From: Candidatus Cloacimonadota bacterium
GTDB lineage: Bacteria > Cloacimonadota > Cloacimonadia > Cloacimonadales > TCS61
Direction of reading: 5' to 3'
Assembly (NCBI GenBank): GCA_018645365.1
Contig: JABGOP010000001.1
Location: 80,118 to 144,117 of the forward strand
DNA: 64,000 bases
Shown here: in pieces, positions 4,503 to 49,807 of the stretch
Layout of the letters: the number at the start of each line of letters is the position of its first letter
How positions within the stretch are numbered: position 1 is the first letter of the stretch
Program-made: the position numbers and the translations under genes
The notes under the pieces: model-generated
Told to the model about the DNA's origin: nothing
What the model saw: the letters and a program-made list of their open reading frames with translations, nothing else
Database searches by the model: none

Positions 4503-4503
4503 A

Positions 4504-5394: not shown

Positions 5395-5397
5395 AAT

Positions 5398-5829
5398 ATG
5401 AAAATTAAAATTCAAAAAATAACCAAAAACGCACTTCTCCCACAAAAAATGACAGAACATGCCGCAGGTTACGATTTGTATTCCGCTAATGACGAAAATA
5501 TTATGCTAAAACCAAGCTCCATCACGCTTGTTTCGACTGGAATAGCGATTAGTTTACCAATTGGCTACGAAGCTCAAATTCGACCAAGAAGCGGATTAGC
5601 CGTCAAAAACCAAATTGGAATTTTAAATTCACCTGGCACTATTGATGCTGATTATCGCGGGGAAATTAAGGTAATTCTCTTCAATTTTGGCAAAACTAAT
5701 TTCACTATCAAGCCTGCAATGCGTATCGCCCAAATGGTAATTTCCAAGCACGAAACCATCGAATTTGAACTTCATAAACAACTCGATGAAACCAGGCGCG
5801 GTGATGGCGGATTTGGTCACACAAAATAA
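5398..5829 (+). CDS. dut: dUTP diphosphatase
   Basis: 143 aa with AAGYDLYS, RPRSGLA, GTIDADYRGEI and the C-terminal RGDGGFGHT motif. Confidence 0.92.
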   Translation: MKIKIQKITKNALLPQKMTEHAAGYDLYSANDENIMLKPSSITLVSTGIAISLPIGYEAQIRPRSGLAVKNQIGILNSPGTIDADYRGEIKVILFNFGKTNFTIKPAMRIAQMVISKHETIEFELHKQLDETRRGDGGFGHTK

Positions 5830-5832
5830 TTT

Positions 5833-6423: not shown

Positions 6424-6431
6424 AGGAAGAT

Positions 6432-12249: not shown

Positions 12250-13074
12250 TTATAAAGAGTTTATCCATCTCGCACATTTTCCAGACGGCAAATCATTCCC
12301 TTTCCCAGATTTAATCGTTAAATTTAAGGTTTCTATTTTTCCATTCCTTAGTTTTGGCAATTTAGCTAATTCGTGCTCCAATTCCGTTAATCCAAAATTT
12401 TTATCGTGGCACGACAATATCATAAATTCAGGCTTTTCACTCAAAAGTTCGTTCACTAATTTCATTAACTCTGGCAAATCTCGTCCAATTTTCCAAGTTG
12501 CACCCTTTTTCCCACGCCCAAAAGCAGGTGGGTCCAAAATTATGCCATCATAAACTACCTCGCGTTTTATTTCACGCTTCAAAAATGCAAAAATATCATC
12601 TACCAGCCAGCGAATATTATTTTTCTCCAAATGGGAAAGTTGGCAGTTTTGTTTTGCCCAATTCACACTGCTCGAAGTAGCATCTATGTGCGTTACTACT
12701 GTTTTTGAGGAAGATGCAAATAGGGTGGCAACACCGGTATAGGCAAATCCATTTAAAATATTTAACGGCCTTTTTGTGGTTGAAACTATTTTTTCTAACC
12801 ATCGCCAATTTGTTAATTGTTCGGGAAAAATACCTATTTGGCGGTTTGGCGAAAGCTTTAGTTCAAATTGGAAATTATTTATTTTGAAGTTTGGTAATTC
12901 GTTTTTTTTTGCCCAATTATTTTCTTTTTTGTCAAACATTGCGTGGTAATTTTGCCAAACCTGAGAAGAAAGTTTTCGCTTCCAACTCGCCTGCATAGAT
13001 GGTCTACGAATTATCACATCATCGATTTGCTCTAATTTTTCAAATTCACCACAATCAAGTAATTTATAGTTCAT
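12250..13074 (-). CDS. class I SAM-dependent methyltransferase (RlmI/RlmK-like catalytic domain)
   Basis: GFAYTGVATLFAS (SAM-binding loop) and YDGIILDPPAFGRG motifs. Confidence 0.6.
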   Translation of the reverse strand: MNYKLLDCGEFEKLEQIDDVIIRRPSMQASWKRKLSSQVWQNYHAMFDKKENNWAKKNELPNFKINNFQFELKLSPNRQIGIFPEQLTNWRWLEKIVSTTKRPLNILNGFAYTGVATLFASSSKTVVTHIDATSSSVNWAKQNCQLSHLEKNNIRWLVDDIFAFLKREIKREVVYDGIILDPPAFGRGKKGATWKIGRDLPELMKLVNELLSEKPEFMILSCHDKNFGLTELEHELAKLPKLRNGKIETLNLTIKSGKGNDLPSGKCARWINSL

Positions 13075-14092
13075 CGAGTTGTTCGGTAATTTTTTTTACC
13101 TCTTCCGCCCGATCTTTTGAGGTAATGAGAATGGCATCATCTGTCTCCACCACCACCAAATTTTCTACTCCAATTAATGCTACAAATTTTGTTGATTTCA
13201 CATAATTATTTTTACTATCTACCGTTGCATTGTTACATTTTAACACATTTTCATTCTCATCTTTTCGCGAAACATCATAAAGCGATTTCCAACTTCCTAC
13301 ATCACTCCAACCATAATCAACCGGTACTACAACTCGTTTTTCGGCTTTTTCCATTATGCCAATATCGATCGGAATACGTGGCATTTGATGATATTCTTTT
13401 TCGATTGATGCATCTATTCCCCATTTTTTTTCAATTGCTGAAAATAGGACAAAAATTTGCGGTTGATGATTTGCAAAAGCATTCAAAATAGTCTCAAGTT
13501 TCCACAAAAACATCCCACTATTCCAAAAAAAATTCCCATTTTTCAAAAATTTTTCGGCAGTTTCATAATTCGGTTTTTCTTTGAATTTATTTACTTCAAA
13601 AACTTCCTTATTAACTTTATTTCCACTTTCTATGTATCCATAACCAGTGGCTGGATATGTAGGTTTAATACCAAATGTAACGAGATTTTCGTCATTCGCA
13701 GCGTTACTACCAACTTCGATTGTTCGATGAAATTCTTCCACATTCGCGATAAGATGATCAGCTGGCAAAACAAACATTTTTTCATTTTTGGGATATTTTT
13801 GGGAAAGGTACAAAGCACTAAGCGCAATGCACGGTGCGGTATTCATTCCAAACGGCTCCACAATGATGTTTTCGGGCGGAAGCTGTGGCAAATGTTCTTT
13901 CGTTAATTCTACTTGCGATGCCGCCGTCACGATGTAAATATCGTCTATTTTGAATTTTGGGAATAAGCGTTCAACCGTCATTTGCAACATCGATTTTTCG
14001 GATAATATTTTTAAGAATTGTTTTGGTTTTTCTTTTTTTGAAAGTGGCCAAAATCTAGAACCAACACCGCCAGCCATAATTAATGCAATCAT
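13064..14092 (-). CDS. manC: mannose-1-phosphate guanylyltransferase
   Basis: N-terminal LIMAGGVGSRFWPLS...KQFL nucleotidyltransferase signature. Length and remaining sequence fit the short ManC form. Confidence 0.8.
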   Translation of the reverse strand: MIALIMAGGVGSRFWPLSKKEKPKQFLKILSEKSMLQMTVERLFPKFKIDDIYIVTAASQVELTKEHLPQLPPENIIVEPFGMNTAPCIALSALYLSQKYPKNEKMFVLPADHLIANVEEFHRTIEVGSNAANDENLVTFGIKPTYPATGYGYIESGNKVNKEVFEVNKFKEKPNYETAEKFLKNGNFFWNSGMFLWKLETILNAFANHQPQIFVLFSAIEKKWGIDASIEKEYHQMPRIPIDIGIMEKAEKRVVVPVDYGWSDVGSWKSLYDVSRKDENENVLKCNNATVDSKNNYVKSTKFVALIGVENLVVVETDDAILITSKDRAEEVKKITEQLDEL

Positions 14093-21176: not shown

Positions 21177-23836
<2,660 letters not shown>

Positions 23837-23844
23837 AAATTATC

Positions 23845-25344
23845 CTAAAATTTCTGCAAAACCTCTTCGCAAATTTTACGCATCTCTTCTTTTCGCTCAT
23901 CAGTTAATTTACCTTTCACCATTTCGACCATAAAATCTTGATATTTCAAATCGAGAGTTGAGAAAAGTTCTTCTTCCACTTTCTTCACATCGTTAATTTC
24001 CACTTTATCCAAAAATCCTTCATTTGCCATAAAAATAATGAATATTTGCTTTGCAACTGGAAGTGGTGAATATTGATTTTGTTTCAAAATCTCTACCAAT
24101 CGTTCACCACGACGCAACTGATTTTGTGTGATTTGATCAAGATCAGAACCAAATTTAGCAAATGCCTTCAACTCATCATATTGAGCTAAATTCAATCGAA
24201 GCTGACCAACTACATTTTTCATCGCTTTAATTTGAGCAGAACCACCCACACGAGATACCGAAAGTCCAGCATTAATCGCAGGTTTCACGCCTGAATGAAA
24301 AAGACGGCTTCCTAAATAAATTTGCCCATCTGTAATGGAAATCACATTCGTAGGAATATAAGCTGTAATATCATCAGCTTGAGTTTCAATAATCGGAAGT
24401 GCTGTTAACGAACCGCCACCCAATTTGTCATTTAACTTAGAAGCGCGCTCCAAAAGGCGTGAATGAAGGTAAAATACATCACCTGGATATGCCTCGCGTC
24501 CCGGCGGTCTTCGTAGTAAAAGCGAAAGTTCACGATACGCCACCGCATGCTTAGAAAGATCATCATAAACAATGAGGGCGTGTTGACCTTTATCGCGGAA
24601 ATATTCCCCCATCGAAGCACCTGAATATGGCGATAAATACTGCAATGATGATGAATCTGATGCTGATGCTGAAACAATTACAGTATATTCCATTGCACCG
24701 TGTGATTCCAATATTTTTACTAATTTTGCAATCGATGATTTTTTCTGTCCAATTGCAACATAAATGCACACTACATCTGTATTTTTTTGATTTATTATCG
24801 TGTCAATAGCGATGGCTGTTTTACCTGTTTGACGGTCACCAATAATTAGTTCGCGTTGACCTCTACCAATTGGGATCATCGCATCAACCGATTTTAAACC
24901 TGTTTGTAACGGTTCTTTTACCGGCTGTCTTTGAATAATCCCCAAAGCTTTTCGTTCAACCTTAAAATGATCATCTGGCACAATTTCACCTTTACCATCA
25001 ATTGGTTGCCCAAGAGCATTTACCACGCGCCCTAAAACATTTTTCCCGACTGGAACCTCTAAAATTCGTTTCGTTCTTTTGGCAATGTCGCCCTCTTTAA
25101 CTTTGTGTGTTTCACCAAAAAGGATACATCCCACATTATCTTCTTCCAAGTTCAAAGCCATTCCCACAACGCCATTTGGGAATTCAATCATCTCACCCGC
25201 CATCACATTTTCCATGCCATAAACGCGCGCGATACCATCACCAACCTGAACCACTTTTCCTGTTTCGGCGATATCTATTTCAAATTTGAAATTTTTGATT
25301 TTTTCTTTCAAAATTGCACTTATTTCGTCTGGTTGTATTTTCAT
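23845..25344 (-). CDS. atpA: F-type ATP synthase alpha subunit
   Basis: GDRQTGKTA Walker A and full-length similarity. Confidence 0.97.
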
Positions 25345-34609: not shown

Positions 34610-37600
34610 TTACTTCACAACTCTAATTTTTAGAGAAGGTAAATTGGCACTAACTTCGCTGTTATACATTGCTTCACAAAGAGTTGACGGAAGTGTAAAC
34701 TCACCGATTGTTACCGCATTCAATTTCACGAGAAAATATTTAGCAGAGTTGCCACGCATATCAAAAAACCACATAATTCGATCATCGCGAATATCCACAA
34801 AATCTTCTTGTCTGAGTATTTTATCTTTGAATTTCGTCTGTTCTTCATCAAGTAAACGCATGTTTTCAATTTCCCAACCAGACGGCAAAATTTGGTTTAA
34901 AGCTATTTCATCGATAGCATGCCTATCTTTATTTTCCACTTTGAAAAATCCGTAAAAAATTGTATTTTGCTTCAATTCAGTTGGATTAATCACTTTTTTA
35001 TCTTCCGAATACCATGCCACATCTACAAAAATGCCATTTTGCTTTTTCTTATTTTTGGGATTCAGAGGAACACCGCTCCAATTCATTGTCGCAAAAATTT
35101 TTTCCAGTTTTGAATTACTATCAAGTCGAATTTTTACCGTTTTCCCGAAAGAATTAGGGATGTTTTTGGAAACTAAAAACTCATCTGAATCGAAAGTAAT
35201 TTTTTCGCCATTTGGCAAATACATTTTACCTTTTAATTTTGCATCTTCATTAAATTGAGCAAAATTGCGATTAATATATTTTCCCAAAGCAAGCAACACA
35301 TAACCAGTTGTGTGAGTAGAATACCAATCTTTGGTTGAAATTTTGCGCACAATTTCTCGATACATTTCTTCAGATTTCTTTTGTTCGTCCATTATAATTA
35401 GAGCATCTAAAATCATTGCTTTATCACGCAATGTGCTGCCGTAAGTGCCGCCAAATTCCGAAAAATTCAGTACTTTCAAACCTGTTGTTTGGGCAATTTT
35501 TTCGGCAGTTCGTGAAATACCCGCCAATTTGTAAGATGCAGCCAACAACCAACGCTCCACATCACTCATTTGACCAAGCTCATTTTCTTTCAGCAAATTC
35601 ATCGCACCAATTTCCGCATTATCGGAAAGCGCCAAAACATACAAACGGTAAACGCGAGTTTTCAAATTTTCCACTTGTGAGTTTGTAATTGCCATCGACT
35701 GTTGAAATTTGACCCAATTTGCCAGAAGTTCAGAAGGCACAAAATAACCAAGCCTTTGTGCTTCCACGAGAAAATGTCCCGCATAATTTGTATTCCATTT
35801 TGAAACCCCCAAACCACCAGGCCAATATGAAAATCCTCCGTTCGGCTGTTGAAATTTACGCAATCGCTGAATTCCCATGTTGATATTTTTGTCAATCTCC
35901 TCATTCGTGGTTTGTGCATTTTTCAAAAAAGATTTTAAGTATAATTGTGGAAAAACAGCTGATGTCGTCTGTTCAAGACAACCATACGGGTATTGCATCA
36001 ACCAATTTAAGCGATGAGAAAGATTTACTTTTGGCATTCTTGCAATCGTGATTGTCGCTTCATTTGTCCCTTTTATACCATCATTGGGGATTTTAAAGAT
36101 AATTTCTTCGCCTCTTTTACACTCTTTTTCGGTGAAATTGGAAAGACGTGGAGAATTTGGTCGAGAAGCAATTTCTATTTTGTAAAAAGCTTCAAAATTT
36201 TCGGAAATTGCCCTTACTGTAATATTTCCAATGCCAATTTCGTTTTTTACGCGTAAATTAAAAGCAACATCTTGTTCACCAATTTTTGGAAAAAATGCTG
36301 CTTTATCGTGTTCGCCAACTATTTGAAGCGGACCATCAACTTCAATACTTACGCTCACATTTTTGATTTTCTCATTTGTGGCAAAAACTGTAACCGGGAG
36401 TTGAAACTCATCTTGTGGCGCAACTACTCGCGGTACAGTTGGCAAAACCATCAATTCACTTTTTACGGGCACTGTTTTTTCTGCCATTCCGTATTTTTCT
36501 TTTTTAGCTGAAAGAACCATCACCCGCACTGCTCCAACATATTCAGGTAACTCAAAATCGATTTTCGCATAACCACCTTCATCTGTTTGAAGTGGACCTT
36601 TGAACATTGAAATTGACTTAAATCGCTTTGCTTTAATCGGTGATAATTGATTATCGTCACAAATCCCATAATCACCTCCAACCGAAAATGTTTTGAAAAT
36701 ATCACCCTTATTGGCTCCAATTATTTGCCCATAATTATCAAAGGTATCTACTCCCAAACGCAATTTTTTGTAAAATTCCAGCCATGCGCTTGGTGTCTTA
36801 AAATTAGTTAAACCAAGTAAACCTTCATCAACTACCGCAATCGTAAATTGTGTTTGCTCCCGATTTTCAGTTTGAATTTCACACGAAAATTTTTGATTTG
36901 GTTTCAATTCATTTGGCATTTTAATGTTTAATTTTTGATGAGTAGAGCTATCTTCCACCATAATTGGAACCACACCGAACATTCGAATTGGGCAATCATT
37001 TTCTGTTTGTTTGTGCGGTTGAATTACCGAAACGGAACAGTAAATATTTGGTACCATTTCTTTGGTTATCGGTATCTTTATCGTGGTTTGCTCACCATTT
37101 GGCTCACTCCAATAATTTTTCAAAATTTTATCAGCTTTTTCGAGCATTACAAGAACTTCACTCTCTTTTGAAGCAGAAAAAGTAATGGTTGCGATTTCAC
37201 CAACTGTATATTTTGGTTTATCCGCTTTAATTGTAAGAATTCCAGCATTTTGCATCCCACCTTCATTTCCGCCCCAATATGAAACATAGCTAAAAACAGC
37301 AGCAGAATGACCTTTTTTGGTGGATTTATGAGTAATTTCAATAAGGTATTCTCCTCTTGTTTCTGGAGTAAATTCAAAATAGTGTGGCGCTAACGCGGAA
37401 GAAATTTTTTCCTCAAAAATAAGCTCTGTTTCAGAATCAGTTTTGAAATGCAACCGTGCATAATCACGCGAATCATATTCCCACCACCAATATCTATTAT
37501 TCTTGTAAATGCAAACTTGAAGCTCTTCTCCCACTTTCGGTTGACCATCTTTATCAACTAATATAACATTTGCAGAAAATGGTATTCCAATTTTGCTCCA

Positions 37601-40081
37601 TTTGTCCGACAATGACTCGATGCCAACATAATATTCATAAGGATCAATGTGAAGAAGCTGATTTTTTTTGCTTGAACGACCGCCTTTTTCGAAAACTTCC
37701 GCTTTAATTTTTGCAGTAATAGCAGACGGCACATTTGTTAAATATGGCATTTTCCAGCCAACCTGAAGCATTCCATCATCATTCAAAAAACCATCAAAGA
37801 TTTTTTGATTAAGTGTTTTAAAAATAACCGTTTCGTTACCAAAAAAATAAGTTTTATACTTTGAAAATCTCTTGTTTTGGTGAATAATTTTTGTTTTAAG
37901 AATCGCCTTCAAACCAGCTGCTGGATTGCCAAATAAATAAGCAGATGATAGTGCGATATCGACCACCTTATCCTTCGCTGAAAAGTTCTCTTTTTCCATT
38001 TTAAAATTTATTTTAAGGCGTTCTGGCACAACAGTTTCGATTTTTAATTTATGATAAAAAGTGCTGTTGCCTACCCTTATTTGAACATTCCACCTACCCG
38101 TTAAATCTTCTGAATCGGTTTGATATTTCAAATTGTAAAAACCGTCTTCCGCAGTTTTCAATATTTGTTCAAAAACCAGTTGATTTTTGGGATTGAATAT
38201 TTTTATTTCAACGGGATGATTATCGGGAAATGTATCATTTGCATTTCTCGCTATTATCGAAATATTGACAGCATCACCAGGTCGATAAACCCCACGTTCT
38301 GTGTAGATGAAAACTCGTGTTCCGCCACTTTCAGATTGCACTCCGCCCACATCAAAAGTAGAAAGATTCCAACCCATTTCATCAAGCGTCAAAATACTTT
38401 TGTGCTCATTAAATTCCGCTTCTACAAAAAACACATTAGCGCCATTTTTGGCAAAACTCACTCGTCCAGCTTTGTTTGTAATCAATTCCTCAATAACCTG
38501 ATTTTGGTAACTCTTCAATCTAACTTTTACATTTTGCATTGGTTGAGCAGTCAAAATATTGTTCACAAAAACAATATACTCATCACTTGTTTTTTTGTAA
38601 GTTATTCCCATATCGGTAATTATGAGTGGTTTTACAATTTTCCCATGCTTATGATAATAACCATTTTTCATTGGATTTGTATAGTAGTCAGAACTGTAAT
38701 AATTTTCATCAACTTCTTGCAAACCACTATATAGAATATCATCTTTCGTAAATGATATCTCAATGACAAACAGCCCTTTTTTTGTCGGTGCAATCAAGTC
38801 ACTCAAATCAAGTTCGTGTTGCAACCACTTATTTTTGGTTTTATCACCAATAATGAGTTTTTTTTCAATAATATCCACCCCAACTCGCTTAAAATGCCAA
38901 GAGCCATAGCCATTATGTCTATTTTTATTGCTGTTTAGCTTTTCATTTTGTATGAAAAAGCCGATATTAGATTCGTAAACTTCCTTAATTTTGAGGGTTA
39001 CGGCTTTCACATTTAATGTGCGAAAACAAATTTTATTTTCGTTTGAGGACGGCAATAACATTCCATCATTCGAAAAAATTATTTGTGGTTTTTGGTCACT
39101 AAAATGGAATTTTTTCTTAAATTCAGATACTGTCTTGATGCCAAATTTATTGGAAATACCTGCATTTACGATTACTGAATAACTTTCGCCAAGCTTGAAA
39201 TCTCCGGTTACAATGATTTTTTTACCGATTTTTTTTGTCTCGATTTTCAAATAAGGTTGTACCGAAATTAAACCAGTAATGTCTTGTTGAGAATTTAATT
39301 CATCAGAAAAATCTAGTACAATCGTTGGAAATTGATTATCAAATTTACGGTAAACATTAATCAACTTCATCTCGTGCAATGAGCTTAAACTGAATTTTCT
39401 TTCAAAATTTTCTAATAATTTGAGATTTTTTTTCTCAATTTTTAATGTAAATTCTTTTTCCACATCGGCTCTCTCAACAATCTGCGATTTAAATAAAAAT
39501 TGCTTTGAAGCACCTTCAATTTCCAACTGAATAACCTTATTTCCAATTTTGCATGAAAGTGCTTTTTTGACAGTCGCTAAGTCTGTGGGAATATTGAATT
39601 TAATTTCACCTTCATATCGTAAATTTTTATTCCCGGCATCTGTGTAGATAAAATCGGCATCAAAAAAAATCAATTCACGACCAATAATTTCAAAATCAAA
39701 ATGGAATGATTTTTTCATCAATATCCTACGAAAGATTACATCAAGAACAAGCTCACATTGATATTTTTTTCGCATTTTGAGAGGCTCTTGAGGAATAAAT
39801 TTCAAAGTCTGGCGATCACTCCAAATAGTTTTTCCTTCAATTTTCGGTGAAAATTTAAAAACTTCCTCTTTGGGGGCAGTTCCAATCTGTTCAGATGTTA
39901 TCATCTCGTTCACAAAACGAACCTGAATGGGAGTATTTGGCATAATTTTTCCACTTGTAATTTGATTTATGTAGTGAGCAGCTTCTTGAATATTTCGCAT
40001 TTCGTTTGGTTTTTTATCGCAACCAAAAAATAAAAATACACTCAAAAAAACTATAATTACCGTTTTCCATTGCTGTTTCAT
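34610..40081 (-). CDS. bacterial alpha-2-macroglobulin family lipoprotein (thioester-containing)
   Basis: 1823 aa. Lipobox LFFGCD, thioester motif YPYGCLEQTTS, and the classic adjacency to pbpC. Confidence 0.9.
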   Translation of the reverse strand: MKQQWKTVIIVFLSVFLFFGCDKKPNEMRNIQEAAHYINQITSGKIMPNTPIQVRFVNEMITSEQIGTAPKEEVFKFSPKIEGKTIWSDRQTLKFIPQEPLKMRKKYQCELVLDVIFRRILMKKSFHFDFEIIGRELIFFDADFIYTDAGNKNLRYEGEIKFNIPTDLATVKKALSCKIGNKVIQLEIEGASKQFLFKSQIVERADVEKEFTLKIEKKNLKLLENFERKFSLSSLHEMKLINVYRKFDNQFPTIVLDFSDELNSQQDITGLISVQPYLKIETKKIGKKIIVTGDFKLGESYSVIVNAGISNKFGIKTVSEFKKKFHFSDQKPQIIFSNDGMLLPSSNENKICFRTLNVKAVTLKIKEVYESNIGFFIQNEKLNSNKNRHNGYGSWHFKRVGVDIIEKKLIIGDKTKNKWLQHELDLSDLIAPTKKGLFVIEISFTKDDILYSGLQEVDENYYSSDYYTNPMKNGYYHKHGKIVKPLIITDMGITYKKTSDEYIVFVNNILTAQPMQNVKVRLKSYQNQVIEELITNKAGRVSFAKNGANVFFVEAEFNEHKSILTLDEMGWNLSTFDVGGVQSESGGTRVFIYTERGVYRPGDAVNISIIARNANDTFPDNHPVEIKIFNPKNQLVFEQILKTAEDGFYNLKYQTDSEDLTGRWNVQIRVGNSTFYHKLKIETVVPERLKINFKMEKENFSAKDKVVDIALSSAYLFGNPAAGLKAILKTKIIHQNKRFSKYKTYFFGNETVIFKTLNQKIFDGFLNDDGMLQVGWKMPYLTNVPSAITAKIKAEVFEKGGRSSKKNQLLHIDPYEYYVGIESLSDKWSKIGIPFSANVILVDKDGQPKVGEELQVCIYKNNRYWWWEYDSRDYARLHFKTDSETELIFEEKISSALAPHYFEFTPETRGEYLIEITHKSTKKGHSAAVFSYVSYWGGNEGGMQNAGILTIKADKPKYTVGEIATITFSASKESEVLVMLEKADKILKNYWSEPNGEQTTIKIPITKEMVPNIYCSVSVIQPHKQTENDCPIRMFGVVPIMVEDSSTHQKLNIKMPNELKPNQKFSCEIQTENREQTQFTIAVVDEGLLGLTNFKTPSAWLEFYKKLRLGVDTFDNYGQIIGANKGDIFKTFSVGGDYGICDDNQLSPIKAKRFKSISMFKGPLQTDEGGYAKIDFELPEYVGAVRVMVLSAKKEKYGMAEKTVPVKSELMVLPTVPRVVAPQDEFQLPVTVFATNEKIKNVSVSIEVDGPLQIVGEHDKAAFFPKIGEQDVAFNLRVKNEIGIGNITVRAISENFEAFYKIEIASRPNSPRLSNFTEKECKRGEEIIFKIPNDGIKGTNEATITIARMPKVNLSHRLNWLMQYPYGCLEQTTSAVFPQLYLKSFLKNAQTTNEEIDKNINMGIQRLRKFQQPNGGFSYWPGGLGVSKWNTNYAGHFLVEAQRLGYFVPSELLANWVKFQQSMAITNSQVENLKTRVYRLYVLALSDNAEIGAMNLLKENELGQMSDVERWLLAASYKLAGISRTAEKIAQTTGLKVLNFSEFGGTYGSTLRDKAMILDALIIMDEQKKSEEMYREIVRKISTKDWYSTHTTGYVLLALGKYINRNFAQFNEDAKLKGKMYLPNGEKITFDSDEFLVSKNIPNSFGKTVKIRLDSNSKLEKIFATMNWSGVPLNPKNKKKQNGIFVDVAWYSEDKKVINPTELKQNTIFYGFFKVENKDRHAIDEIALNQILPSGWEIENMRLLDEEQTKFKDKILRQEDFVDIRDDRIMWFFDMRGNSAKYFLVKLNAVTIGEFTLPSTLCEAMYNSEVSANLPSLKIRVVK

Positions 40082-41945: not shown

Positions 41946-43148
41946 ATGAAATCTATTCTACTGATTTTAGGCGTTTTATTTTCGGTTTCTATTTTTGCTA
42001 ATTCCATCTTTTCGTTTGATGGAATGCCCGAAAAAAATTATGGTGCAGATATTTATTCCGCTGGTATGGGCGATTGTGGTGCTGCCGATTTATTTCGTGT
42101 TAATGCAAACTTTTCCAATCCGTCGATTGCAACATCAACCAATAAAGTGATGTTTTCTACCGGTGGAGAATTGGGTTATTTTTGGTACACAAATTCAAAT
42201 AATAATTTCCGCGATGATGGCTTAGTTTTACCTTATTTTTCAATTGCTGTTCCAATTCAAAATCACCGATTTGGGTTTAGCTTCAATTCAATAAGTTCTG
42301 GAAATTTACAAACTGAAGGGACCATAAGCTTCCAAGACTCAATAAATTACACTTTAACAAACACAATAAAGTCGAATCTATTTAAAACAAGTATTCTTTA
42401 TGCACATAAAAATAATTTCGCTAATTTAGGTATTTCGATAGACTATTATTTGGGGCATCGTACCCGAAGTTGGCAACTCGATTTTGAAGATGATGGCTTT
42501 ACTGATGCAAAATACGAACACGAGAAAATATTCAAGAACGTGGGGTTTACTGCTGGAATCAGTAAAAGAGCAAAAAACTTTGCGTATGGACTTTCGTATT
42601 CATCACAGGTTAAATTAGGTGGCGATGAATACTTCAAATTCGACCATTATCCAGAGGTTGATACTCTTTATCTCGACCCACATTCTTTTGTAGCGCCTGC
42701 CGAAATTTCAAATTCTTTTACTTTTAAATTTTCAAAACACTTCAAAACTTCAGTTGATTTCAATTATGAACTTTGGGACAATACAGATTTGTCTTCTGAA
42801 AATACTTATCGTGTTGGCTGCGGTTTTGCTTTTGAACCTTCGCGCTCTGAAAATAAGTGGTACAGACGAATTCCATTGCGATTTGGTGGATATTATCGCG
42901 AATTGCCATTCAAAATAAATGACAAAATAATCTTGGAAAAAGCTGTTACTTTTGGTTTGACAATTCCACTTAAATTTTCTGATAAAAAAATAGATATTGC
43001 CGTAAAATATTTAACGCGTGGGAATATTGAAAAACACGATGTTGAAGATAACGCACTCACTTTTTCGTTTGGAATAACCGGTTTTGATATTTTTGGAAAA
43101 CGCGTTCGCAAAACCGCGCCGCGAGAAATCCCCAAAGCGAGTAAATAG
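41946..43148 (+). CDS. outer-membrane beta-barrel protein (FadL/PorV-like class)
   Basis: Signal peptide, an N-terminal AGMGDCGAA....NPS motif typical of this OMP class, and alternating beta-strand pattern throughout. Confidence 0.5.
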   Translation: MKSILLILGVLFSVSIFANSIFSFDGMPEKNYGADIYSAGMGDCGAADLFRVNANFSNPSIATSTNKVMFSTGGELGYFWYTNSNNNFRDDGLVLPYFSIAVPIQNHRFGFSFNSISSGNLQTEGTISFQDSINYTLTNTIKSNLFKTSILYAHKNNFANLGISIDYYLGHRTRSWQLDFEDDGFTDAKYEHEKIFKNVGFTAGISKRAKNFAYGLSYSSQVKLGGDEYFKFDHYPEVDTLYLDPHSFVAPAEISNSFTFKFSKHFKTSVDFNYELWDNTDLSSENTYRVGCGFAFEPSRSENKWYRRIPLRFGGYYRELPFKINDKIILEKAVTFGLTIPLKFSDKKIDIAVKYLTRGNIEKHDVEDNALTFSFGITGFDIFGKRVRKTAPREIPKASK

Positions 43149-44716
43149 TGAAATTTCACTGGAATTATAATTATTTAAAAGAAGAGAACCCCTTCAAGCA
43201 AATAATGGAAAACAGAAATATGGCAGAATCTTTTTTAGAATTATCAATCTCTGACATTCCAGATTTCAAACTCATGAAGGACATCTCAAAAGCAGCAAGT
43301 CGCATCATTAAAGCCGTTCAACAAAAAGAAAAAATCTTCATTTTTGGTCACGACGATGTAGACGGCATTACATCTACCTACATTCTCTTTAATTTTTTGG
43401 GAAAAATTGGCTCGCAAAATCACTACTGTTTCATTCCGAATCGATTAACCGACCATCATGGAATTCAACAAAATTTCATTCAAAAAGTAACCGACGAAAA
43501 TGCTAATTTAATCATCACTGTTGACGGTGGAATTTCTGATTTTGAAGCAATTGAACATCTTCAAAACAATTTGTGTGATGTAATTATTACCGACCATCAC
43601 ATTGTGCAACACAGTGTTCCAAAAGCGTTTGCGGTTGTAAACCCAAAACAACATGACTGCGATTTTCCATTTAAAATGATGGCAGGAGTTGGCGTTGTTT
43701 ATTTTCTTCTCAAAATGATGGCGGAAAAATTATCAATTAGCATTGATAAAAATTATCTTTTTTGGGTAGCAGCTGGTACGATTGCTGACAAAGTACCACT
43801 CCGTAATACAAACCGGATTTTAGTCAAAGAAGTTTTGGAAAACTGGACATCTTTTGATGATGATACTTTGAAAAATTTGGATGATTATTTGTGTGCTCCT
43901 CTAAATTTCACAGAACGATTACGAATCATCAAATTTATCAATCGACTTTTCTCAAACGGCAGACTGCCAGACGGACAAAATTTGGCATTGGAACTACTTC
44001 TCACCGAAGAATCTGAGCAAAAACCAATAATTTATCAGCTTTTTGCAAAAGCAACAGACGCAAAGAAAAAGAAAAATGATGTCAATCTAATAATCAAAAA
44101 TATAACCGAAAATATTATTGATGACCATTTCATTTTCGTTGATTTTGAAAATAAAATTCCCATTGAATTTGCTGGTCATTCTGCATCGAAAATTGTAAAA
44201 AAGCACAAAATTCCAGCAATTATCATAAAACCCAAAAACGGTATCTTTGCAGGCGAAGCAAGAAGTGCGGGCAGATTTAATTTAATGGATGCTTTTGAAT
44301 ATTGTAAGAGCTCATTAATTCAGTTTGGTGGGCACGCAAAAGCAGCTGGATTCACCATCGAAAAAGAAAATTTGGAGATGTTTCAAGCTAAATTTAAAGC
44401 ATATCTTCAAACTCAAAAAAATATTCTATTTGAGAATGAAACCATTAAAATCGATGCTATTTTAGACGCTGAAGACATTGAATATTTAGATGAATATATA
44501 CAAATGGAATACAATTTACTGCAACCGATTGGGCAGGGTAACGTAACGCCACATTTTCTCATTAAAAATTTCCTACCAAAACGGGATGTAAATAAAATAA
44601 AAATAAATTTTCGTAACACCGACATTAAGCACGATCATCATTACGCCGTAATCGTAAAATGGAGTGGAAAATCATTTAATGTGGTCGATTACAGAAAAGC
44701 AAATTACCTTTTATAA
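43148..44716 (+). CDS. recJ: DHH-family single-stranded-DNA exonuclease RecJ-like
   Basis: Motifs FGHDDVDGITS, TVDGG, ITDHH and DHHA1 GGHAKAAGFT. Confidence 0.75.
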   Translation: MKFHWNYNYLKEENPFKQIMENRNMAESFLELSISDIPDFKLMKDISKAASRIIKAVQQKEKIFIFGHDDVDGITSTYILFNFLGKIGSQNHYCFIPNRLTDHHGIQQNFIQKVTDENANLIITVDGGISDFEAIEHLQNNLCDVIITDHHIVQHSVPKAFAVVNPKQHDCDFPFKMMAGVGVVYFLLKMMAEKLSISIDKNYLFWVAAGTIADKVPLRNTNRILVKEVLENWTSFDDDTLKNLDDYLCAPLNFTERLRIIKFINRLFSNGRLPDGQNLALELLLTEESEQKPIIYQLFAKATDAKKKKNDVNLIIKNITENIIDDHFIFVDFENKIPIEFAGHSASKIVKKHKIPAIIIKPKNGIFAGEARSAGRFNLMDAFEYCKSSLIQFGGHAKAAGFTIEKENLEMFQAKFKAYLQTQKNILFENETIKIDAILDAEDIEYLDEYIQMEYNLLQPIGQGNVTPHFLIKNFLPKRDVNKIKINFRNTDIKHDHHYAVIVKWSGKSFNVVDYRKANYLL

Positions 44717-44729
44717 ACTGGAGAAATAG

Positions 44730-44900
44730 ATGAAAATTATCAAAAATTTATGCGATATTTGTGGAACTTGCGTTGCTGTTTGCCCGGCTGACGCGATTAT
44801 TGTTTCCGAATTTGAAGTTGTGATAAATAATCAAAAATGCACAAATTGTTCAAACTGTTTGAAAGTTTGCCCAATCAAGGCAATCAAAGAGGGTGAATAA
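44730..44900 (+). CDS. 2x[4Fe-4S] ferredoxin (56 aa, absent from the ORF track)
   Basis: Read by hand: MKIIKNLCDICGTCVAVCPADAIIVSEFEVVINNQKCTNCSNCLKVCPIKAIKEGE, with two CxxCxxCxxxCP motifs. Its TAA overlaps the next ATG. Confidence 0.8.
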   Translation: MKIIKNLCDICGTCVAVCPADAIIVSEFEVVINNQKCTNCSNCLKVCPIKAIKEGE

Positions 44901-46090
44901 TGAAAAATAAGTATGATGTAATCGTTATCGGTGGCGGTCCCGCTGGGAGTGTGGCGGCAAAATTTGCGTCAGAAAATGGAGCATCTGTTCTTCTTTTGGA
45001 GCGCGACCGCGAAGCAGGAATTCCTGTTAGATGTGCTGAGGGCGTTTCTTTAAAGGGAATCGCACCATTCATCGAAATTGACAAAAGATGGATTGCCGCC
45101 CAAATTGATGTAGCAACTCTTTTTGCCCCCAACGGTGAAAGTGCAAAAATGCATAACAATGGAACGGGACTGGTTTTGGAGCGCAGAATTTTTGACACTG
45201 CCCTTTGCGAAGAAGCAGTAAAATTTGGCGTGGAATTTGTAACAAAAGCAGATGCTATTGATTTAACTTGGAAAAATGGTAAAATCTCGGGCGTTAAAAT
45301 AAATTATTTGAACGAAATCCTAGAGATAGAATGTGATGTCGTTATTGGTGCTGATGGCGTGGAATCACGCGTAGGGAGATGGGCTGGCATCAAAACGAAT
45401 GTAGCACTCAAAGATATCGACACTTGCATCCAATACACCTTATCGGGAATTGACATCGAAGAAAATGCGTGCGAATTTTACTTTGGAAGAGATGTCTCGC
45501 CTGGCGGCTATGTGTGGGTTTTTCCAAAAAATAAAAATACGGCAAATGTCGGAATTGGATTAGCTGGTCATTTTTCACACGCAAAAGGACCCAAAAAATT
45601 TCTCGATGAATTCATTCAAAAACGCTTTCCAAACGGACAAAAAATATATACTGTTTGTGGTGGTGTAACCACGGCGGACACATTGCCGGAAATTGTGCAC
45701 GACAACATTATGTTAGTTGGCGATGCGGCACGACAAGTGAATCCCATTACTGGCGGCGGAATCGTGCAGGGAATGATTGCGGGAAGCATCGCTGGGAAAG
45801 TCGCCGCAGAAGCCGTTCAAAAGAAAAAATTTAACAAGAAATTCCTAAAAAAATACCGAAAAGAATGGGATAAAAAAATTGGCAATAATCAAAAGGTGAT
45901 GTATAAAATCAAAGAAAAAGTTTTGGAAATGGGTGATGAAAAATTCAATTCTCTCGTTAAAATTTGCCAAAATATTCCAGCCGACAAATTTACTGTAAAA
46001 GCACTCTTTAGCGAAGCAGTAAAAGATGACCCAAGATTAGTTTTAGAAATTGCTAAAACATTCGTCAAAAGTAAATTAAAGCTGAAATGA
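44900..46090 (+). CDS. geranylgeranyl reductase family FAD-dependent oxidoreductase
   Basis: YDVIVIGGGPAGSVAAKFASENGASVLLLER dinucleotide fold, RCAEG, GDAARQVNPITGGGI, and about 400 aa. Confidence 0.8.
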   Translation: MKNKYDVIVIGGGPAGSVAAKFASENGASVLLLERDREAGIPVRCAEGVSLKGIAPFIEIDKRWIAAQIDVATLFAPNGESAKMHNNGTGLVLERRIFDTALCEEAVKFGVEFVTKADAIDLTWKNGKISGVKINYLNEILEIECDVVIGADGVESRVGRWAGIKTNVALKDIDTCIQYTLSGIDIEENACEFYFGRDVSPGGYVWVFPKNKNTANVGIGLAGHFSHAKGPKKFLDEFIQKRFPNGQKIYTVCGGVTTADTLPEIVHDNIMLVGDAARQVNPITGGGIVQGMIAGSIAGKVAAEAVQKKKFNKKFLKKYRKEWDKKIGNNQKVMYKIKEKVLEMGDEKFNSLVKICQNIPADKFTVKALFSEAVKDDPRLVLEIAKTFVKSKLKLK

Positions 46091-46674
46091 ATGCGATTCA
46101 AAAAAGAGAATTTGGTCGTAAATTTTTCCATTTTGGAACTATCGTAATTCCACTTTCATACAGGTATCTATTTGGCTTCAACAAAAAAACATTCGCGTTC
46201 TACCTTGCGTTGTTCACGCTACTCGTAATTATCGTCGAAATAGCACGCCTAAAACACAAAACTTTCAAAAAAATATTTAATGACTTTACGGGAATTTTGT
46301 TACGAAAACACGAATTTAACGACTTTACGGGCGCAACATATTTGACCATTTCATCTATTTTTTGTGTCATTATTTTCCCACCACAAATTGCTTTTTTAGC
46401 GATTTCCTTTTTGATAATTGGTGATACCCTGGCTGCATTAATTGGGATTCCATTTGGAAAAATGAAAATATTTGACGGTCAGAAAAGCTTTGAAGGAAGT
46501 TTAGCATGTTTTTTGGGATGTTTCTTGTTTGCCTTAATCTATATTGACCCACTCATTGCAACAGTAGGCGCAATCGCTGCCACCACCGCAGAAATATCAA
46601 ATATTCGTCTCGATGATAACATTAAAATCCCTATTTTTAGTGGTGCCCTTATGTGGCTAATTCAATTAATTTAA
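46087..46674 (+). CDS. polyprenol (dolichol/phytol-type) kinase family membrane protein
   Basis: Polytopic, 195 aa. IGDTLAALIGIPFGKMKIFDGQKSFEGSLACF matches the GD..A..(V/I)G..(F/W)G....(K)(S/T).(E/A)GS signature of prenol kinases in the CTP_transf_1 superfamily. Confidence 0.6.
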   Translation: MNAIQKREFGRKFFHFGTIVIPLSYRYLFGFNKKTFAFYLALFTLLVIIVEIARLKHKTFKKIFNDFTGILLRKHEFNDFTGATYLTISSIFCVIIFPPQIAFLAISFLIIGDTLAALIGIPFGKMKIFDGQKSFEGSLACFLGCFLFALIYIDPLIATVGAIAATTAEISNIRLDDNIKIPIFSGALMWLIQLI

Positions 46675-46686
46675 AAGGAAAAAATT

Positions 46687-47619
46687 ATGAAATTGTCGTT
46701 TGTAATTCCCGTTTTTAACGAACAAGATAGTTTGAAAATATTGCATTCTGAAATTTTGGAAAACATCAAAAAATATAAGTACGAAATCATCTTTATCGAT
46801 GATGGTAGCAACGATGACAGCTTCCAAATAATGACAGAACTAGCCAAAAAAGATGAAAATGTGAAAATCATTAAATTCCGTAAAAATTTTGGGAAATCTG
46901 CAGCTCTACAGACTGGATTTGATGTAGCAAATGGCGAAATTGTATTCACGATGGATGCAGACCTACAAGATAACCCTAAGGAAATTCCAAATTTTATTAC
47001 TAAAATCGAAGCTGGTTTCGACTTAGTCACTGGCTGGAAAGTCAAAAGAAGGGACCCAATTAATAAAACTTGGCCGTCAAAAATTTTTAACTCGGTAACT
47101 TCTAAAACTTTCGGATTAAAATTACACGACTACAATTGTGGCTTCAAAGCATATCAAAAATCAGTTATTAATGAAATTGATGTTTACGGTGAAATGCACC
47201 GCTACATTCCGGCACTGGCAATTGCAAAAGGTTTCACTGTTGCTGAGATTCCAATCGAGCATCGAAAACGCGAATTTGGTAAATCAAAATATGGTATAGA
47301 ACGCTATTTACGCGGATTTCTGGATCTCCTTACGGTAAAGCTCGTAACGGGTTACATTCGTAGTCCACTTTACCTTTTCGGTAGAATTGGTGCTACTTTC
47401 GGCTTAATTGGTCTAATTATCACAATCTACCTCTCCGTCATGAAGTTTTGGTTTTCGGCACCTCTTTCTAACCGCCCGCTTTTATACTTAGGCACACTTT
47501 TAATTATCATTGGTCTGCAATTTTTTTCCATCGGACTTTTGGGTGAATTAATCGTAAATCAAGGTCGTAATCATACAAAAAAAAAGAATATTTCAATTGA
47601 AAAAAGGATTAATCTATGA
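46687..47619 (+). CDS. GT2 polyprenyl-phosphate glycosyltransferase (DPM1/ALG5/GtrB-like)
   Basis: VIPVFNE, IIFIDDGSND, TMDADLQDNP, and two C-terminal TM helices. Confidence 0.8.
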   Translation: MKLSFVIPVFNEQDSLKILHSEILENIKKYKYEIIFIDDGSNDDSFQIMTELAKKDENVKIIKFRKNFGKSAALQTGFDVANGEIVFTMDADLQDNPKEIPNFITKIEAGFDLVTGWKVKRRDPINKTWPSKIFNSVTSKTFGLKLHDYNCGFKAYQKSVINEIDVYGEMHRYIPALAIAKGFTVAEIPIEHRKREFGKSKYGIERYLRGFLDLLTVKLVTGYIRSPLYLFGRIGATFGLIGLIITIYLSVMKFWFSAPLSNRPLLYLGTLLIIIGLQFFSIGLLGELIVNQGRNHTKKKNISIEKRINL

Positions 47620-48968
47620 AAAGTCATTTGAAAAAATTCATTGCCAAAATGGAGGTTGAAAATCCCAATGAACTTGTTATTCAGTCTTTCACAAATTCTT
47701 ATTACAAAATATTGGAAGGTGCAACTGGAAAAATTTCTGAAAATGAAATTGAACAACCAGCTTCAAATAATTTAACAAATTATGATGAACTAAGTGAAAT
47801 TAATTCCGCATTTTTAGGAAAATTAGCTGTCATAAAGCTAAACGGTGGGCTGGGCACAAGCATGGGATTAAATGAGCCAAAATCGCTTATAAAGATAAAA
47901 AATAACTTGAATTTTCTTGATATCATTGCTCGTCAAATTTTGCATTTACGCAACCATTCCCAAAAAGATATTCCACTTTTATTTATGCACAGTTTCAACA
48001 CACGCAAAAAATCACTTGATTATTTAAAAAAATATTCGAACCTCAAAAATGATGATATTCCACTCGATTTTATGCAAAATAAATTTCCAAAAATCAAGCA
48101 ATCTAACCTTTCACCGTTAAATAATCAAAACGAAAATCTAAATTGGAATCCGCCTGGTCATGGTGAAATTTATCTTGTTTTAGCAATCTCAGGCATTCTC
48201 GACAAATTGATAAAAAACGGTTTTGAATATGTATTTATATCCAATGCTGACAATCTGGGTGCCGTTGTTGATGAAAAAATTTTAACCCATTTTGCAAGCA
48301 ACAATATTCCCTTCTTGATGGAGGTTTGCAACCGTACCGAAATGGATAAAAAAGGAGGACACTTGGCGCAAACAAAAAGCGGACAATTGCTCTTGCGTGA
48401 ATCTGCTCAATGCCCCAAAAATGAACTTGAAAATTTCCAGAATATTGATATTTTTTCATACTTCAACACAAATAATTTGTGGATAAACCTGAAATCATTA
48501 AAGCAAAGATTATACGAAAAACGCTTTCATTTGCCATTATCGATGATTTTAAACTCCAAAACAGTGGACGGTGAAAAAGTATATCAGGTTGAATCAGCAA
48601 TGGGATCCGCCATTAGTGTTTTCAAAAATTCGAAAGCGATTATCGTGAACCGTAATCGTTTTATTCCCGTGAAAACAACTAATGATTTATTAATTGTTTG
48701 GAGTGATGTTTTTCGACTTTCAGAAAATTTTAAATTAATCTCCCAAGTCCCAAAAATTCCAAAAATCAATTTAGATACAAAATTTTATCAAAATTATGCA
48801 GACTTCGAAATGCGTTTTCAAAAAGGTGTTCCATCACTAAAAAAATGTAACCAAATAGAGGTTAATGGCGATGTTTTTTGGGGGGAAAATGTGAAAATTT
48901 CTGGAAAAAATGTGAAAATTAGCCACTCTACAACGACATTTTTAGAAAATATTACCCTAAATCAGTAA
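47616..48968 (+). CDS. UTP--glucose-1-phosphate uridylyltransferase, UDPGP (eukaryote-type) family
   Basis: LAVIKLNGGLGTSMG signature, NPPGHGEIY, and a beta-helix-like C-terminus. Confidence 0.8.
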   Translation: MKSHLKKFIAKMEVENPNELVIQSFTNSYYKILEGATGKISENEIEQPASNNLTNYDELSEINSAFLGKLAVIKLNGGLGTSMGLNEPKSLIKIKNNLNFLDIIARQILHLRNHSQKDIPLLFMHSFNTRKKSLDYLKKYSNLKNDDIPLDFMQNKFPKIKQSNLSPLNNQNENLNWNPPGHGEIYLVLAISGILDKLIKNGFEYVFISNADNLGAVVDEKILTHFASNNIPFLMEVCNRTEMDKKGGHLAQTKSGQLLLRESAQCPKNELENFQNIDIFSYFNTNNLWINLKSLKQRLYEKRFHLPLSMILNSKTVDGEKVYQVESAMGSAISVFKNSKAIIVNRNRFIPVKTTNDLLIVWSDVFRLSENFKLISQVPKIPKINLDTKFYQNYADFEMRFQKGVPSLKKCNQIEVNGDVFWGENVKISGKNVKISHSTTTFLENITLNQ

Positions 48969-49807
48969 TTTATACTAAACTCGTTTTCGCGATTAATCTC
49001 CGCTAATATTTTTTTGAATGCATCGTTGTAAATTTGACGAACTCGCTCACGGGAAAGACTTAAAATTCTGCCTATTTCCGCAAAATTTTGCGGTGATTCA
49101 TCATTCAAACCAAAATACAAACCAATTATTTTGTGCTCTCGTTCCGAAAGTTTTTTTAACGATTCCGAAACTTGTTTTTTTTGTTTTTCACGATAGTATA
49201 ATTTTTGTGGATCATTCTCCACTTTGGTCGCTAAAATATCAGCAAAAGTCCGCTCACTTGTATTTGTACCATCAATTTTCTGTTCTATAGAAAGCGTCGC
49301 TGTAACTTCTCGTTTCGTTTTTTCGATAAGCGATACAGTCAATTTCGTCTTTTCGGCAATTTCATTTACAGTCGGAATTCTACCACTTTCCTCAAAAATA
49401 TCTTTTTCTGCCTTGGTGATTTTCTTTGCTAAATTATTTTTACTCAACGGTATTTTAATGATATTTGTTTTTTCGGCAATTGCGAAAAGAATTCGCTGTT
49501 TAATCCACCAAACCGCATAAGAAATCAGTTTATTGTCGGAATTTATGTCATATTTTTCGATGGCTTTTATCAAACCAATGTTGCCTTCACTAATAAGTTC
49601 TGAAAGCGTTAAACCCCGATTTTGATATTTTGTAGCCACCTTTACAACAAATTTCAAATTTGATTCAATCAATTTCCGTTGTGCGGAAAAATCTCCATTT
49701 TTTGATTTAATAGCTAATTCATGTTCCGCTTTTTTAGTTAGGGGCTGAATGTTCGCAATGTCTTTCAAATATTTTTGCAATGCAGCATCTTCAAATACAT
49801 TTTCCAT
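48962..49807 (-). CDS. RpoD-family sigma-70 factor, short form lacking region 1.1
   Basis: Region 1.2/2 LQKYLKDI...ESNLKFVVKVATKYQNRGLTLSELISEGNIGLIKAIEKYD, 2.4 ISYAVWWIKQRI, and region 4 EIGRILSLSRERVRQI. The architecture matches the short Bacteroidetes-type primary sigma. Confidence 0.85.
   Translation of the reverse strand: MENVFEDAALQKYLKDIANIQPLTKKAEHELAIKSKNGDFSAQRKLIESNLKFVVKVATKYQNRGLTLSELISEGNIGLIKAIEKYDINSDNKLISYAVWWIKQRILFAIAEKTNIIKIPLSKNNLAKKITKAEKDIFEESGRIPTVNEIAEKTKLTVSLIEKTKREVTATLSIEQKIDGTNTSERTFADILATKVENDPQKLYYREKQKKQVSESLKKLSEREHKIIGLYFGLNDESPQNFAEIGRILSLSRERVRQIYNDAFKKILAEINRENEFSINY

Follow-up and report, generated by a model that had tools for sequence, protein, structure and literature searches.

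The locus described here lies on contig JABGOP010000001.1 (assembly GCA_018645365.1) of a Candidatus Cloacimonadota bacterium, in a stretch of 64,000 nucleotides with a G+C content of about 34%, referred to below as the window. Five genes follow each other on the forward strand (Table 1), encoding a small ferredoxin (Fdx), a geranylgeranyl reductase (GGR), a polytopic membrane protein (K195), a glycosyltransferase (GT2) and a UTP-glucose-1-phosphate uridylyltransferase (UGPase, gene UGP). Stop and start codons overlap as TAATG between Fdx and GGR, and as ATGA between GGR and K195 and between GT2 and UGPase. Fdx is preceded by a gap of 13 nt containing GGAG and GT2 by a gap of 12 nt containing AAGGA. 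A preliminary description of the stretch had reported five co-directional genes with overlapping or near-abutting ends. All open reading frames (ORFs) were found at the coordinates it gave, with the junctions as described, and every family to which it had assigned them was recovered with hidden Markov models (HMMs), profile-profile alignment and comparison with the Protein Data Bank (PDB). The close relatives of the window's proteins are all from Cloacimonadota, the nearest species-representative locus (L004) showing 83–94% protein identity.

Table 1. Genes of the locus and the pair upstream of it, in window coordinates.
Feature	Position	Strand	Basis or remark
Ferredoxin (Fdx), 56 aa, 2x[4Fe-4S]	44730..44900	+	Fer4_10, Fer4, Cys motifs
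GGR, 396-aa FAD-dependent geranylgeranyl reductase, euryarchaeal type	44900..46090	+	TIGR02032, GGR_cat, 3OZ2 alignment
K195, 195-aa polytopic membrane protein, predicted SEC59/VTE5/DGK1 kinase branch	46087..46674	+	Profile-profile alignment
GT2, 310-aa predicted polyprenyl-phosphate glycosyltransferase, ArnC/GtrB/DPM1 type	46687..47619	+	PF00535, PDB matches
UGPase, 450-aa eukaryote-type UDPGP-family UTP-glucose-1-phosphate uridylyltransferase	47616..48968	+	PF01704
BamG-like beta-barrel-assembly protein and RecJ	41946-44716		Directly upstream of Fdx; NF053685 1.6e-34, below cut-off, for BamG-like

K195 matched no Pfam or NCBIfam model even at an E-value of 10, and its assignment therefore needed profile-profile work. 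A profile of 30 K195 family sequences was compared in hhalign with an alignment of plant phytol kinase VTE5 sequences, which gave 97.4% (E 9.2e-12) over 185 columns, essentially the whole of K195. Three motifs coincide in this alignment: an N-terminal RKxxH, a central GDxxAxxxGxxxG...KSxxGS and a C-terminal AT..E...DDNIxxP. With hmmsearch, VTE5 proteins scored about 50 bits against the K195 profile, from position 7 to 189. When confronted with CarS and with CdsA, the family named beforehand in the preliminary description as arguing against a kinase, K195 sided with the prenol and lipid kinases. Comparison with E. coli CdsA gave 1% over 47 columns in hhalign and 1.7 bits in hmmsearch, just 43 columns aligned with the Cloacimonetes CdsA from the supplement of Villanueva et al. 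(2021, PMC7852524), and the profile scored 25 bits with T. maritima CdsA, at positions 102–158 only. The latter was also the sole match of the profile in the PDB (E 0.03), over about 56–59 residues of the common CTP motif. No CarS chain was retrieved in this PDB search (E≤10) or in Foldseek, and the CarS family was absent from the Pfam matches of the 30 family members (E≤1). Fifteen of these 30 relatives, the window protein not among them, gave a weak match with PF01148 (CTP_transf_1; best E 5e-7), and in two more distant relatives this match was limited to profile positions of about 120 to 195. The AF2 model of K195 is all-helical (pLDDT 91.8) and Foldseek returned only CdsA as a remote match (TM 0.40). 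The signature GD.xES..KR..G.KD.G..(L/I)PGHGG.LDR.D, seen in the CdsA proteins of E. coli, T. maritima and Cloacimonetes, is absent from K195.

The CTP site published for DOLK reads DxxAxxxGxxxGx8KKTxEG. In K195 it takes the form D113-xx-A116-xxx-G120-xxx-G124-x7-Q-K133-S-F-E136-G137, and D113, A116, G120, G124, K133, E136 and G137 are invariant across the 30 relatives. The prenol-kinase signature that had been proposed is thus present, but with a spacer of seven residues (G124-KMKIFDG-QKSFEG), one below the DOLK motif, and not x8 as first given. The core of this site is also common to CdsA and does not discriminate between kinase and CdsA on its own. By its profile alignments, K195 is a member of the SEC59/DOLK, VTE5 and DGK1 kinase branch of the CTP_transf_1 superfamily, and not of CdsA or CarS. 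It would be expected to depend on CTP and to use a polyprenol, although the lipid alcohol (polyprenol, phytol or geranylgeraniol, diacylglycerol or archaeol) cannot be read from the sequence.

Two other assignments of K195 were considered and rejected. Membership of the CarS family found no trace in the sequence profile, Pfam or Foldseek, and a CarS-like role is left as an improbable functional alternative. A Bacteroidota relative of K195 sits after tilS-hpt-ftsH, the position of cdsA in some Bacteroidota, and the idea arose that K195 could be the only CdsA of the organism. This was rejected on the presence of a canonical CdsA of 272 aa in a Cloacimonetes metagenome-assembled genome (MAG).

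GT2 matched Glycos_transf_2 (PF00535, 1.4e-35), carries a DADLQD motif (DxD) and ends in two hydrophobic segments (residues 227–258 and 264–291). In the PDB it matched ArnC (5.8e-49 over residues 2–289), GtrB sll0501 of Synechocystis (9e-31) and the Dol-P-Man synthase of Pyrococcus (6e-20). The enzymes matched over the full length all have polyprenyl phosphate as acceptor. HMM, motif and PDB matches agree with the DPM1/ALG5/GtrB type with two C-terminal transmembrane helices that had been suggested. The protein stayed below the NCBIfam equivalog cut-offs (194 bits versus 529 for the ArnC model; 160 bits for PgfS, also below). UGPase showed the UDPGP domain (PF01704, 2.8e-136, 454.9 bits versus a cut-off of 22) and the KLNGGLGTSMG motif on which it had originally been placed in this family; no NCBIfam model covers it. 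Its identity to the T. brucei enzyme (3GUE) is 44% (E 4e-101), which is unusual for a bacterium, and human, yeast and plant UGPases matched at 1e-83 to 1e-87. UAP1-type UDP-GlcNAc pyrophosphorylases reached only about 1e-8, some 90 orders of magnitude worse, which places the protein closer to UGP than to UAP1.

Fdx carries CxxCxxCxxxCP twice, at residues 8 and 37, and matched Fer4_10 (1.5e-13) and Fer4 (6.2e-13) in the HMM search. GGR passed TIGR02032 (218.4 bits versus a cut-off of 158.8), matched GGR_cat (PF22578, 1.6e-28) and aligned end to end with the digeranylgeranylglycerophospholipid reductase of Thermoplasma acidophilum (3OZ2; 37% identity, E 3.8e-75). The match with the Sulfolobus enzyme was far weaker (about 1e-28). 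The GxGxxG motif, the conserved cysteine (Cys45), RRIFD (RxxxD), PGGYVWVFP (PxxYxWxFP) and LVGD (LxGD) are all present. The family model, the alignment with 3OZ2 and these motifs identify the reductase as an archaeal-type GGR, as had been thought, and not a flavin monooxygenase. It scored below all NCBIfam equivalog cut-offs (NF041160, 265.5 bits versus 780; NF041080, 181 versus 580), so that its substrate specificity is not assignable from sequence.

In the synteny set introduced below, each locus with a GGR has the ferredoxin upstream of that gene. The two are also kept together in a Black Sea Cloacimonetes MAG under different flanks, indicating a conserved pair whatever its surroundings. 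On contig NODE_12935 of this MAG (4981-6962; supplementary table of Villanueva et al.), a HicA/HicB toxin-antitoxin pair lies between ferredoxin and GGR, and glycine-cleavage (gcvP) genes replace RecJ upstream. The precedent invoked in the preliminary description, that the GGR of Methanosarcina acetivorans requires the ferredoxin from its own locus, is correct according to a review of these enzymes. Fdx is likely the electron donor of GGR, and the pair is best read as a ferredoxin-driven archaeal-type isoprenoid reductase, a separable module adjoining K195-GT2.

Gene order was compared in 80 loci of GTDB species representatives with a K195 homolog, using tblastn with the window proteins. These loci are the best matches to the window K195 and hence biased toward the window's clade. 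All were taken as Cloacimonadota, including two (L019 and L034) labelled Armatimonadota. GT2 directly follows K195 in 77 of the 80; of the other three, one (L079) stops at a contig end, one (L015) has an insertion and one (L045) is unresolved. The full block of Fdx-GGR, K195-GT2 and UGP is present in 40 loci and is kept down to about 47% K195 identity. Fdx-GGR and K195-GT2 without UGP occur in 14, and K195-GT2 only, with RecJ abutting K195, in 15. UGP without GGR was found in none. UGPase is present in 41 loci overall and absent from 29 assessable ones, where GT2 is followed by LolCDE-like ABC components, an M3 peptidase, Era or hexapeptide transferases; no sugar-nucleotide gene replaces UGP at this place in the UGP-lacking loci. 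In 18 loci, of which 15 could be fully assessed, Fdx-GGR is missing while K195-GT2 persists. This arrangement is far beyond chance, considering the frequency of the five-gene block (40/80) and of K195-GT2 (77/80), and the expected linkage of the genes in relatives was thereby confirmed. The constant linkage to be expected of one pathway was seen for the near-invariant K195-GT2 pair, but not for Fdx-GGR and UGPase, which are missing from the loci just mentioned. A distribution of this modular kind speaks against reading the locus as a single obligatory route.

The BamG-like gene and RecJ keep their synteny with K195 throughout the phylum, including the loci that lack Fdx-GGR. They overlap by TAGTG and are packed as tightly as the five genes; since they are equally syntenic too, packing alone cannot delimit a functional unit. 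A consensus promoter and terminator scan of the locus gave nothing above chance, with 30 promoter-like sites versus 31.9 expected.

Some individual loci deserve mention. In L015 (2195-6559), K195 is followed, where GT2 is expected, by genes for an FGE-sulfatase/PEGA protein, Bro-N and HEPN, a mobile or defence-like insertion. The two loci with Armatimonadota labels carry the block Fdx-GGR-K195-GT2-UGP, with 70–76% identity for Fdx, GGR and GT2 and 52–59% for K195 and UGP. They are likely mis-binned Cloacimonadota contigs.

The K195-GT2 pair was also found in a sister lineage (L086), whose genomes measure about 1.55 Mb (complete contigs 1.54–1.58 Mb) and whose nearest relatives are Cloacimonadota. 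The order is SecA-K195-GT2-Adk (adenylate kinase) in L086:2936-8201, with LpxK nearby, and the identity to the window proteins is 43% for K195 and 56% for GT2. These different flanks provide independent support for the pair, of which the literature searched contained no description. The K195 family as a whole comprises 8,080 clusters at 50% identity, of proteins of about 195 aa; it is covered by no NCBIfam model, and the source annotations of its members are inconsistent (phosphatidate cytidylyltransferase, dolichol kinase, phytol kinase, PlsY, SEC59/DGK1/VTE5 family). More distant members occur alone in envelope or housekeeping surroundings, among them an FtsH-K order in one Bacteroidota genome and one archaeal context. 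A high-GC lineage from soil and sediment (L095-L138; e.g. L088:3533-10173) shows the order SLT (lytic transglycosylase)-K195-like-SecA, where 27 of the 31 loci that could be assessed have SLT upstream, and SecA adjoins the K195-like genes of L086 and L090 as well. In P0199, a protein of 402 aa, dephospho-CoA kinase (CoaE) is naturally fused to a K195-like domain at the C-terminus.

Natural fusions of a K195-like domain with a GT21-type glycosyltransferase were found among the distant relatives (35% identity). GT21 enzymes glycosylate lipid hydroxyls. One fusion of 644 aa (L089:147-8456, a contig of 59% G+C) lies about 3 kb from a divergent cluster of PcrB (GGGPS), GGR, ferredoxin and UbiA, together with a 599-aa gene of no assigned family. 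The cluster represents ether-lipid genes of archaeal type, and its GGR shares 40% identity with that of the window. Another, of 600 aa (L092:2708-5145), directly follows and overlaps a gene for a 210-aa CDP-alcohol phosphatidyltransferase, and a third has no lipid genes around it. The metagenome scan returned no relatives of the fusion protein P0230.

The bearing of these genes on lipid synthesis has to be seen against earlier work on the phylum. Villanueva et al. (2021) showed the GGGP and DGGGP synthases (GGGPS and DGGGPS) of Cloacimonetes to be active and listed, as the step completing a pathway of archaeal type, geranylgeranyl reductases close to those of Euryarchaeota; they found no CarS in Cloacimonetes. 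One of our loci (L008) is from their MAG NIOZ-UU2 and carries RecJ-Fdx-GGR-K195-GT2-UGP. The window-type GGR is thus the GGR that these authors assigned to the saturation of archaeal-type ether lipids. In their supplement the genes of GGGPS and DGGGPS lie together but not with GGR, and the two synthases are TACK-like whereas GGR is euryarchaeal-like. A Black Sea Cloacimonetes MAG in the same supplement has a canonical rpoN-uppS-cdsA-dxr order. With a CdsA and a UppS of its own, such an organism has a source of polyprenol, and K195 would be an extra function. The claim of the preliminary description that the locus follows a route other than the standard bacterial undecaprenyl-phosphate one was overstated in this light. 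No match for CdsA or UppS was found in the 1.19 Mb of fetched loci, which is uninformative as all loci represent one neighbourhood.

A preprint on the pangenome of 46 genomes reports GGGPS in 11 and DGGGPS in 14. In its engineered-system Clade I both are limited to deep-branching members and are described as lost in the lineages that diverged later; F-type ATP synthase, which the window encodes, is given as typical of the environmental Clade II. LW2 Bin 38_2 (our L039) and NIOZ-UU2, both GGGPS/DGGGPS-positive in the preprint, are GGR-positive in our set, and the GGR-lacking loci belong to 'Cloacimonas sp.' and UBA-type genomes, which resemble late Clade I. This suggests that Fdx-GGR is distributed along with the ether-lipid genes rather than with K195-GT2, for datasets that differ and loci that are clade-biased. 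A direct comparison of the GGR frequency in the 80 loci (77%) with the published 24–30% for GGGPS/DGGGPS was discarded as invalid on account of that bias.

Taken together, we give about an even chance to a locus of separable modules, in which K195 and GT2, with UGPase where it is present, make a polyprenyl-phosphate-glucose donor, and Fdx-GGR forms an adjacent module. K195 would use CTP to phosphorylate a free isoprenoid alcohol, for which polyprenol is the most likely candidate, on the cytoplasmic face of the membrane. GT2 would then transfer a hexose from a UDP-sugar onto the lipid monophosphate, and the resulting polyprenyl-phosphate-hexose would be flipped to serve as a periplasmic sugar donor for a GT-C enzyme encoded elsewhere. 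In the window's lineage UGPase, translationally coupled to GT2, would supply UDP-glucose, which makes polyprenyl-phosphate-glucose the most probable product. Fdx-GGR, present in some lineages only, has the saturation of archaeal-type ether lipids as its established candidate role and may also saturate the carrier lipid. A dual role is possible, since Haloferax volcanii depends on one GGR for its saturated dolichol phosphate as well as for its diether lipids.

Several observations weigh against this model. A polyprenyl-phosphate sugar that has donated its sugar releases polyprenyl phosphate and not polyprenol, so that it is not obvious why a kinase should be needed. K195-like genes outside Cloacimonadota and the L086 lineage have no GT2 neighbour, and the GT21 fusions suggest that part of the family acts on glycerolipids or archaeol. 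The literature searched contained no characterised prokaryotic member of the family. Among about 27 window ORFs scanned against Pfam there was no GT-C consumer or flippase. As GT2 lies under every equivalog cut-off, we infer its sugar and acceptor from more general similarity. Finally, since BamG and RecJ are equally syntenic, adjacency within the phylum is weak evidence alone and may reflect phylum-wide collinearity.

A more ambitious version of the same scheme joins all five genes in one pathway, with the Fdx-dependent GGR saturating a polyprenol that K195 phosphorylates and GT2 glucosylates with UDP-glucose from UGPase, to give a dolichol-like polyprenyl-phosphate-glucose. It has a minor but real chance. 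The overlapping junctions, the conserved block in 40 species representatives and the absence of UGP wherever GGR is lacking speak for it, but RecJ and BamG are packed just as closely, which makes the overlaps a property of the genome, and the nesting of UGP in GGR-positive loci may be mere phylogeny. GGR paralogs of H. volcanii reduce dolichol phosphate, and GGRs need an anionic head group according to the review cited, which a kinase could supply. The closest solved homolog of the window GGR, in contrast, is a glycerophospholipid reductase. The euryarchaeal type of GGR, against the TACK-like GGGPS and DGGGPS of these bacteria of the FCB group, suggests a history separate from the ether-lipid genes, whereas the loss of GGR seems to coincide with lineages that lose GGGPS/DGGGPS. 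K195-GT2 abutting RecJ where Fdx-GGR is missing and the canonical UppS of the related MAG likewise argue against a single pathway. That Fdx-GGR acts in the same pathway as K195-GT2, and that this pathway replaces the undecaprenyl route, is not established and in our view unlikely. It is equally doubtful that Cloacimonadota, and perhaps other FCB bacteria, reach a dolichol- or phytanyl-like phosphate-glucose from a free isoprenoid alcohol through saturation with a ferredoxin-driven archaeal-type GGR and phosphorylation with a minimal CTP-dependent kinase. If this were true, glycan-carrier chemistry would be a task of the GGR cited for an 'archaeal membrane lipid pathway', in place of ether lipids or in addition to them, and the K195 family with its 8,000 clusters would represent the missing prokaryotic polyprenol kinase.

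K195 could also act on glycerolipids, the yeast DGK1 being in the same kinase branch as SEC59 and VTE5. It would then be a DGK1-like CTP-dependent diacylglycerol or archaeol kinase or, less likely, a CarS-like activator that fills the CarS gap of the phylum, and the locus would serve the head groups of ether lipids or glycolipids together with Fdx-GGR. This we regard as rather improbable. JGI annotates one K195 relative as 'diacylglycerol kinase (CTP)', K195 adjoins a GGR already assigned to ether lipids, and the GT21 fusions combine the domain with a glycosyltransferase of the lipid-hydroxyl type, in two cases close to lipid genes. These fusions are distant, however, and the third is without such context. 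The partner in Cloacimonadota is a GT2 of the ArnC/GtrB/DPMS type, whose characterized relatives use polyprenyl phosphate, and K195-GT2 persists in lineages reported to be without GGGPS and DGGGPS. The lack of the catalytic C-terminal signature of CdsA in K195, its undetectable similarity to CarS and the canonical CdsA of the phylum count against this role as well. An absence of any common function, with BamG-RecJ-Fdx-GGR-K195-GT2-UGP as a conserved order in a compact genome and each gene, or the Fdx-GGR pair, engaged in unrelated housekeeping, has a slim chance in our judgement. It would account for BamG and RecJ, which are clearly unrelated, for the promoter and terminator scan at chance level and for the housekeeping contexts of K195-like genes elsewhere (SLT-K-SecA, FtsH-K). 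It does not account for the K195-GT2 pair of the L086 lineage, which stands between wholly different neighbours, the natural fusions with a glycosyltransferase, or the direct biochemical fit of a lipid-monophosphate producer, a lipid-monophosphate-using glycosyltransferase and a UDP-sugar producer side by side.

The placement of K195 in the kinase branch and its phylum-wide tie to a polyprenyl-phosphate glycosyltransferase lead to a testable function, that of a bacterial CTP-dependent polyprenol kinase.

Other genes of the window were noted in passing. The ispA-type prenyl diphosphate synthase mentioned in the preliminary description (as 4504-5394) was recovered as an ORF at 4474-5394 (polyprenyl_synt, 2.2e-59). 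It opens a group (4474-7762) that continues with a dUTPase, a methyltransferase, a 259-aa ORF without assignment and a PgsA-type CDP-alcohol phosphatidyltransferase (6e-41). The window further contains genes for a ManC-type sugar-1-phosphate nucleotidyltransferase (13064-14092) and for the alpha and beta subunits of an F-type ATP synthase (21564-25344) and, on the reverse strand, a very large ORF of 1,823 aa (34610-40081). Downstream of the locus, a 281-aa ORF on the reverse strand (48962-49807) converges on the UGPase gene, the 3' ends overlapping by 7 nt. Its counterparts in L002 and L003 contain sigma-70 domains, and farther on there is a MerR-type ORF.

Compared with known systems, the locus shares the GGR gene with the archaeal lipid pathway described for Cloacimonetes (PMC7852524), and the annotation table of that study contains the Fdx-(HicAB)-GGR ortholog. 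The neighbours of the gene, the ferredoxin upstream and K195, GT2 and UGPase downstream, are not discussed there and bear on the argument about the 'lipid divide'. The small 2x[4Fe-4S] ferredoxin directly upstream of a GGR with all GGR motifs recalls M. acetivorans, and the reductase has the same length as the Thermoplasma enzyme to which it is 37% identical. Unlike these archaeal examples, the pair in the window is bacterial and adjoins a kinase and GT2, not ether-lipid synthases.

The full-length alignment of GT2 with ArnC and GtrB, of the bacterial GtrB/ArnC/PgfS group, takes in the C-terminal membrane hairpin, but the known systems of this group use undecaprenyl phosphate from UppS and UppP. 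Their partners are flippases and GT-C enzymes, and a CTP-type lipid kinase is not known among them. The supply of Dol-P-Glc and Dol-P-Man in eukaryotes (SEC59/DOLK, ALG5/DPM1, UGPase) is similar in its kinase with DxxAxxxGxxxG...K(S/T)xEG, its GT2 with DxD and its UDPGP-family UGPase. The enzyme logic of dolichyl-phosphate-sugar supply that had been attributed to the locus holds for these three families; the saturation step and the replacement of the undecaprenyl carrier are not established. The Pfam scans of the window ORFs, in which no GT-C enzyme was seen, also brought up no SRD5A3-type alpha-reductase, and an archaeal-type GGR is present instead. DOLK is reported to have some fifteen transmembrane domains, whereas K195 is minimal, and the host is a diderm bacterium with a canonical UppS in a related MAG. 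K195-GT2 moreover occurs without GGR or UGPase in many lineages, Fdx-GGR being dispensable for it in the 15 fully assessable species.

The phytol kinase VTE5 of plants and cyanobacteria differs from K195 in sequence (about 21% identity), in setting, this organism having no chlorophyll or tocopherol metabolism, and in the genomic partner, which is here a polyprenyl-phosphate glycosyltransferase and not the phytyl-phosphate kinase VTE6. It is nevertheless the closest characterized relative of K195 that was found, aligning from end to end with all three motifs in common.

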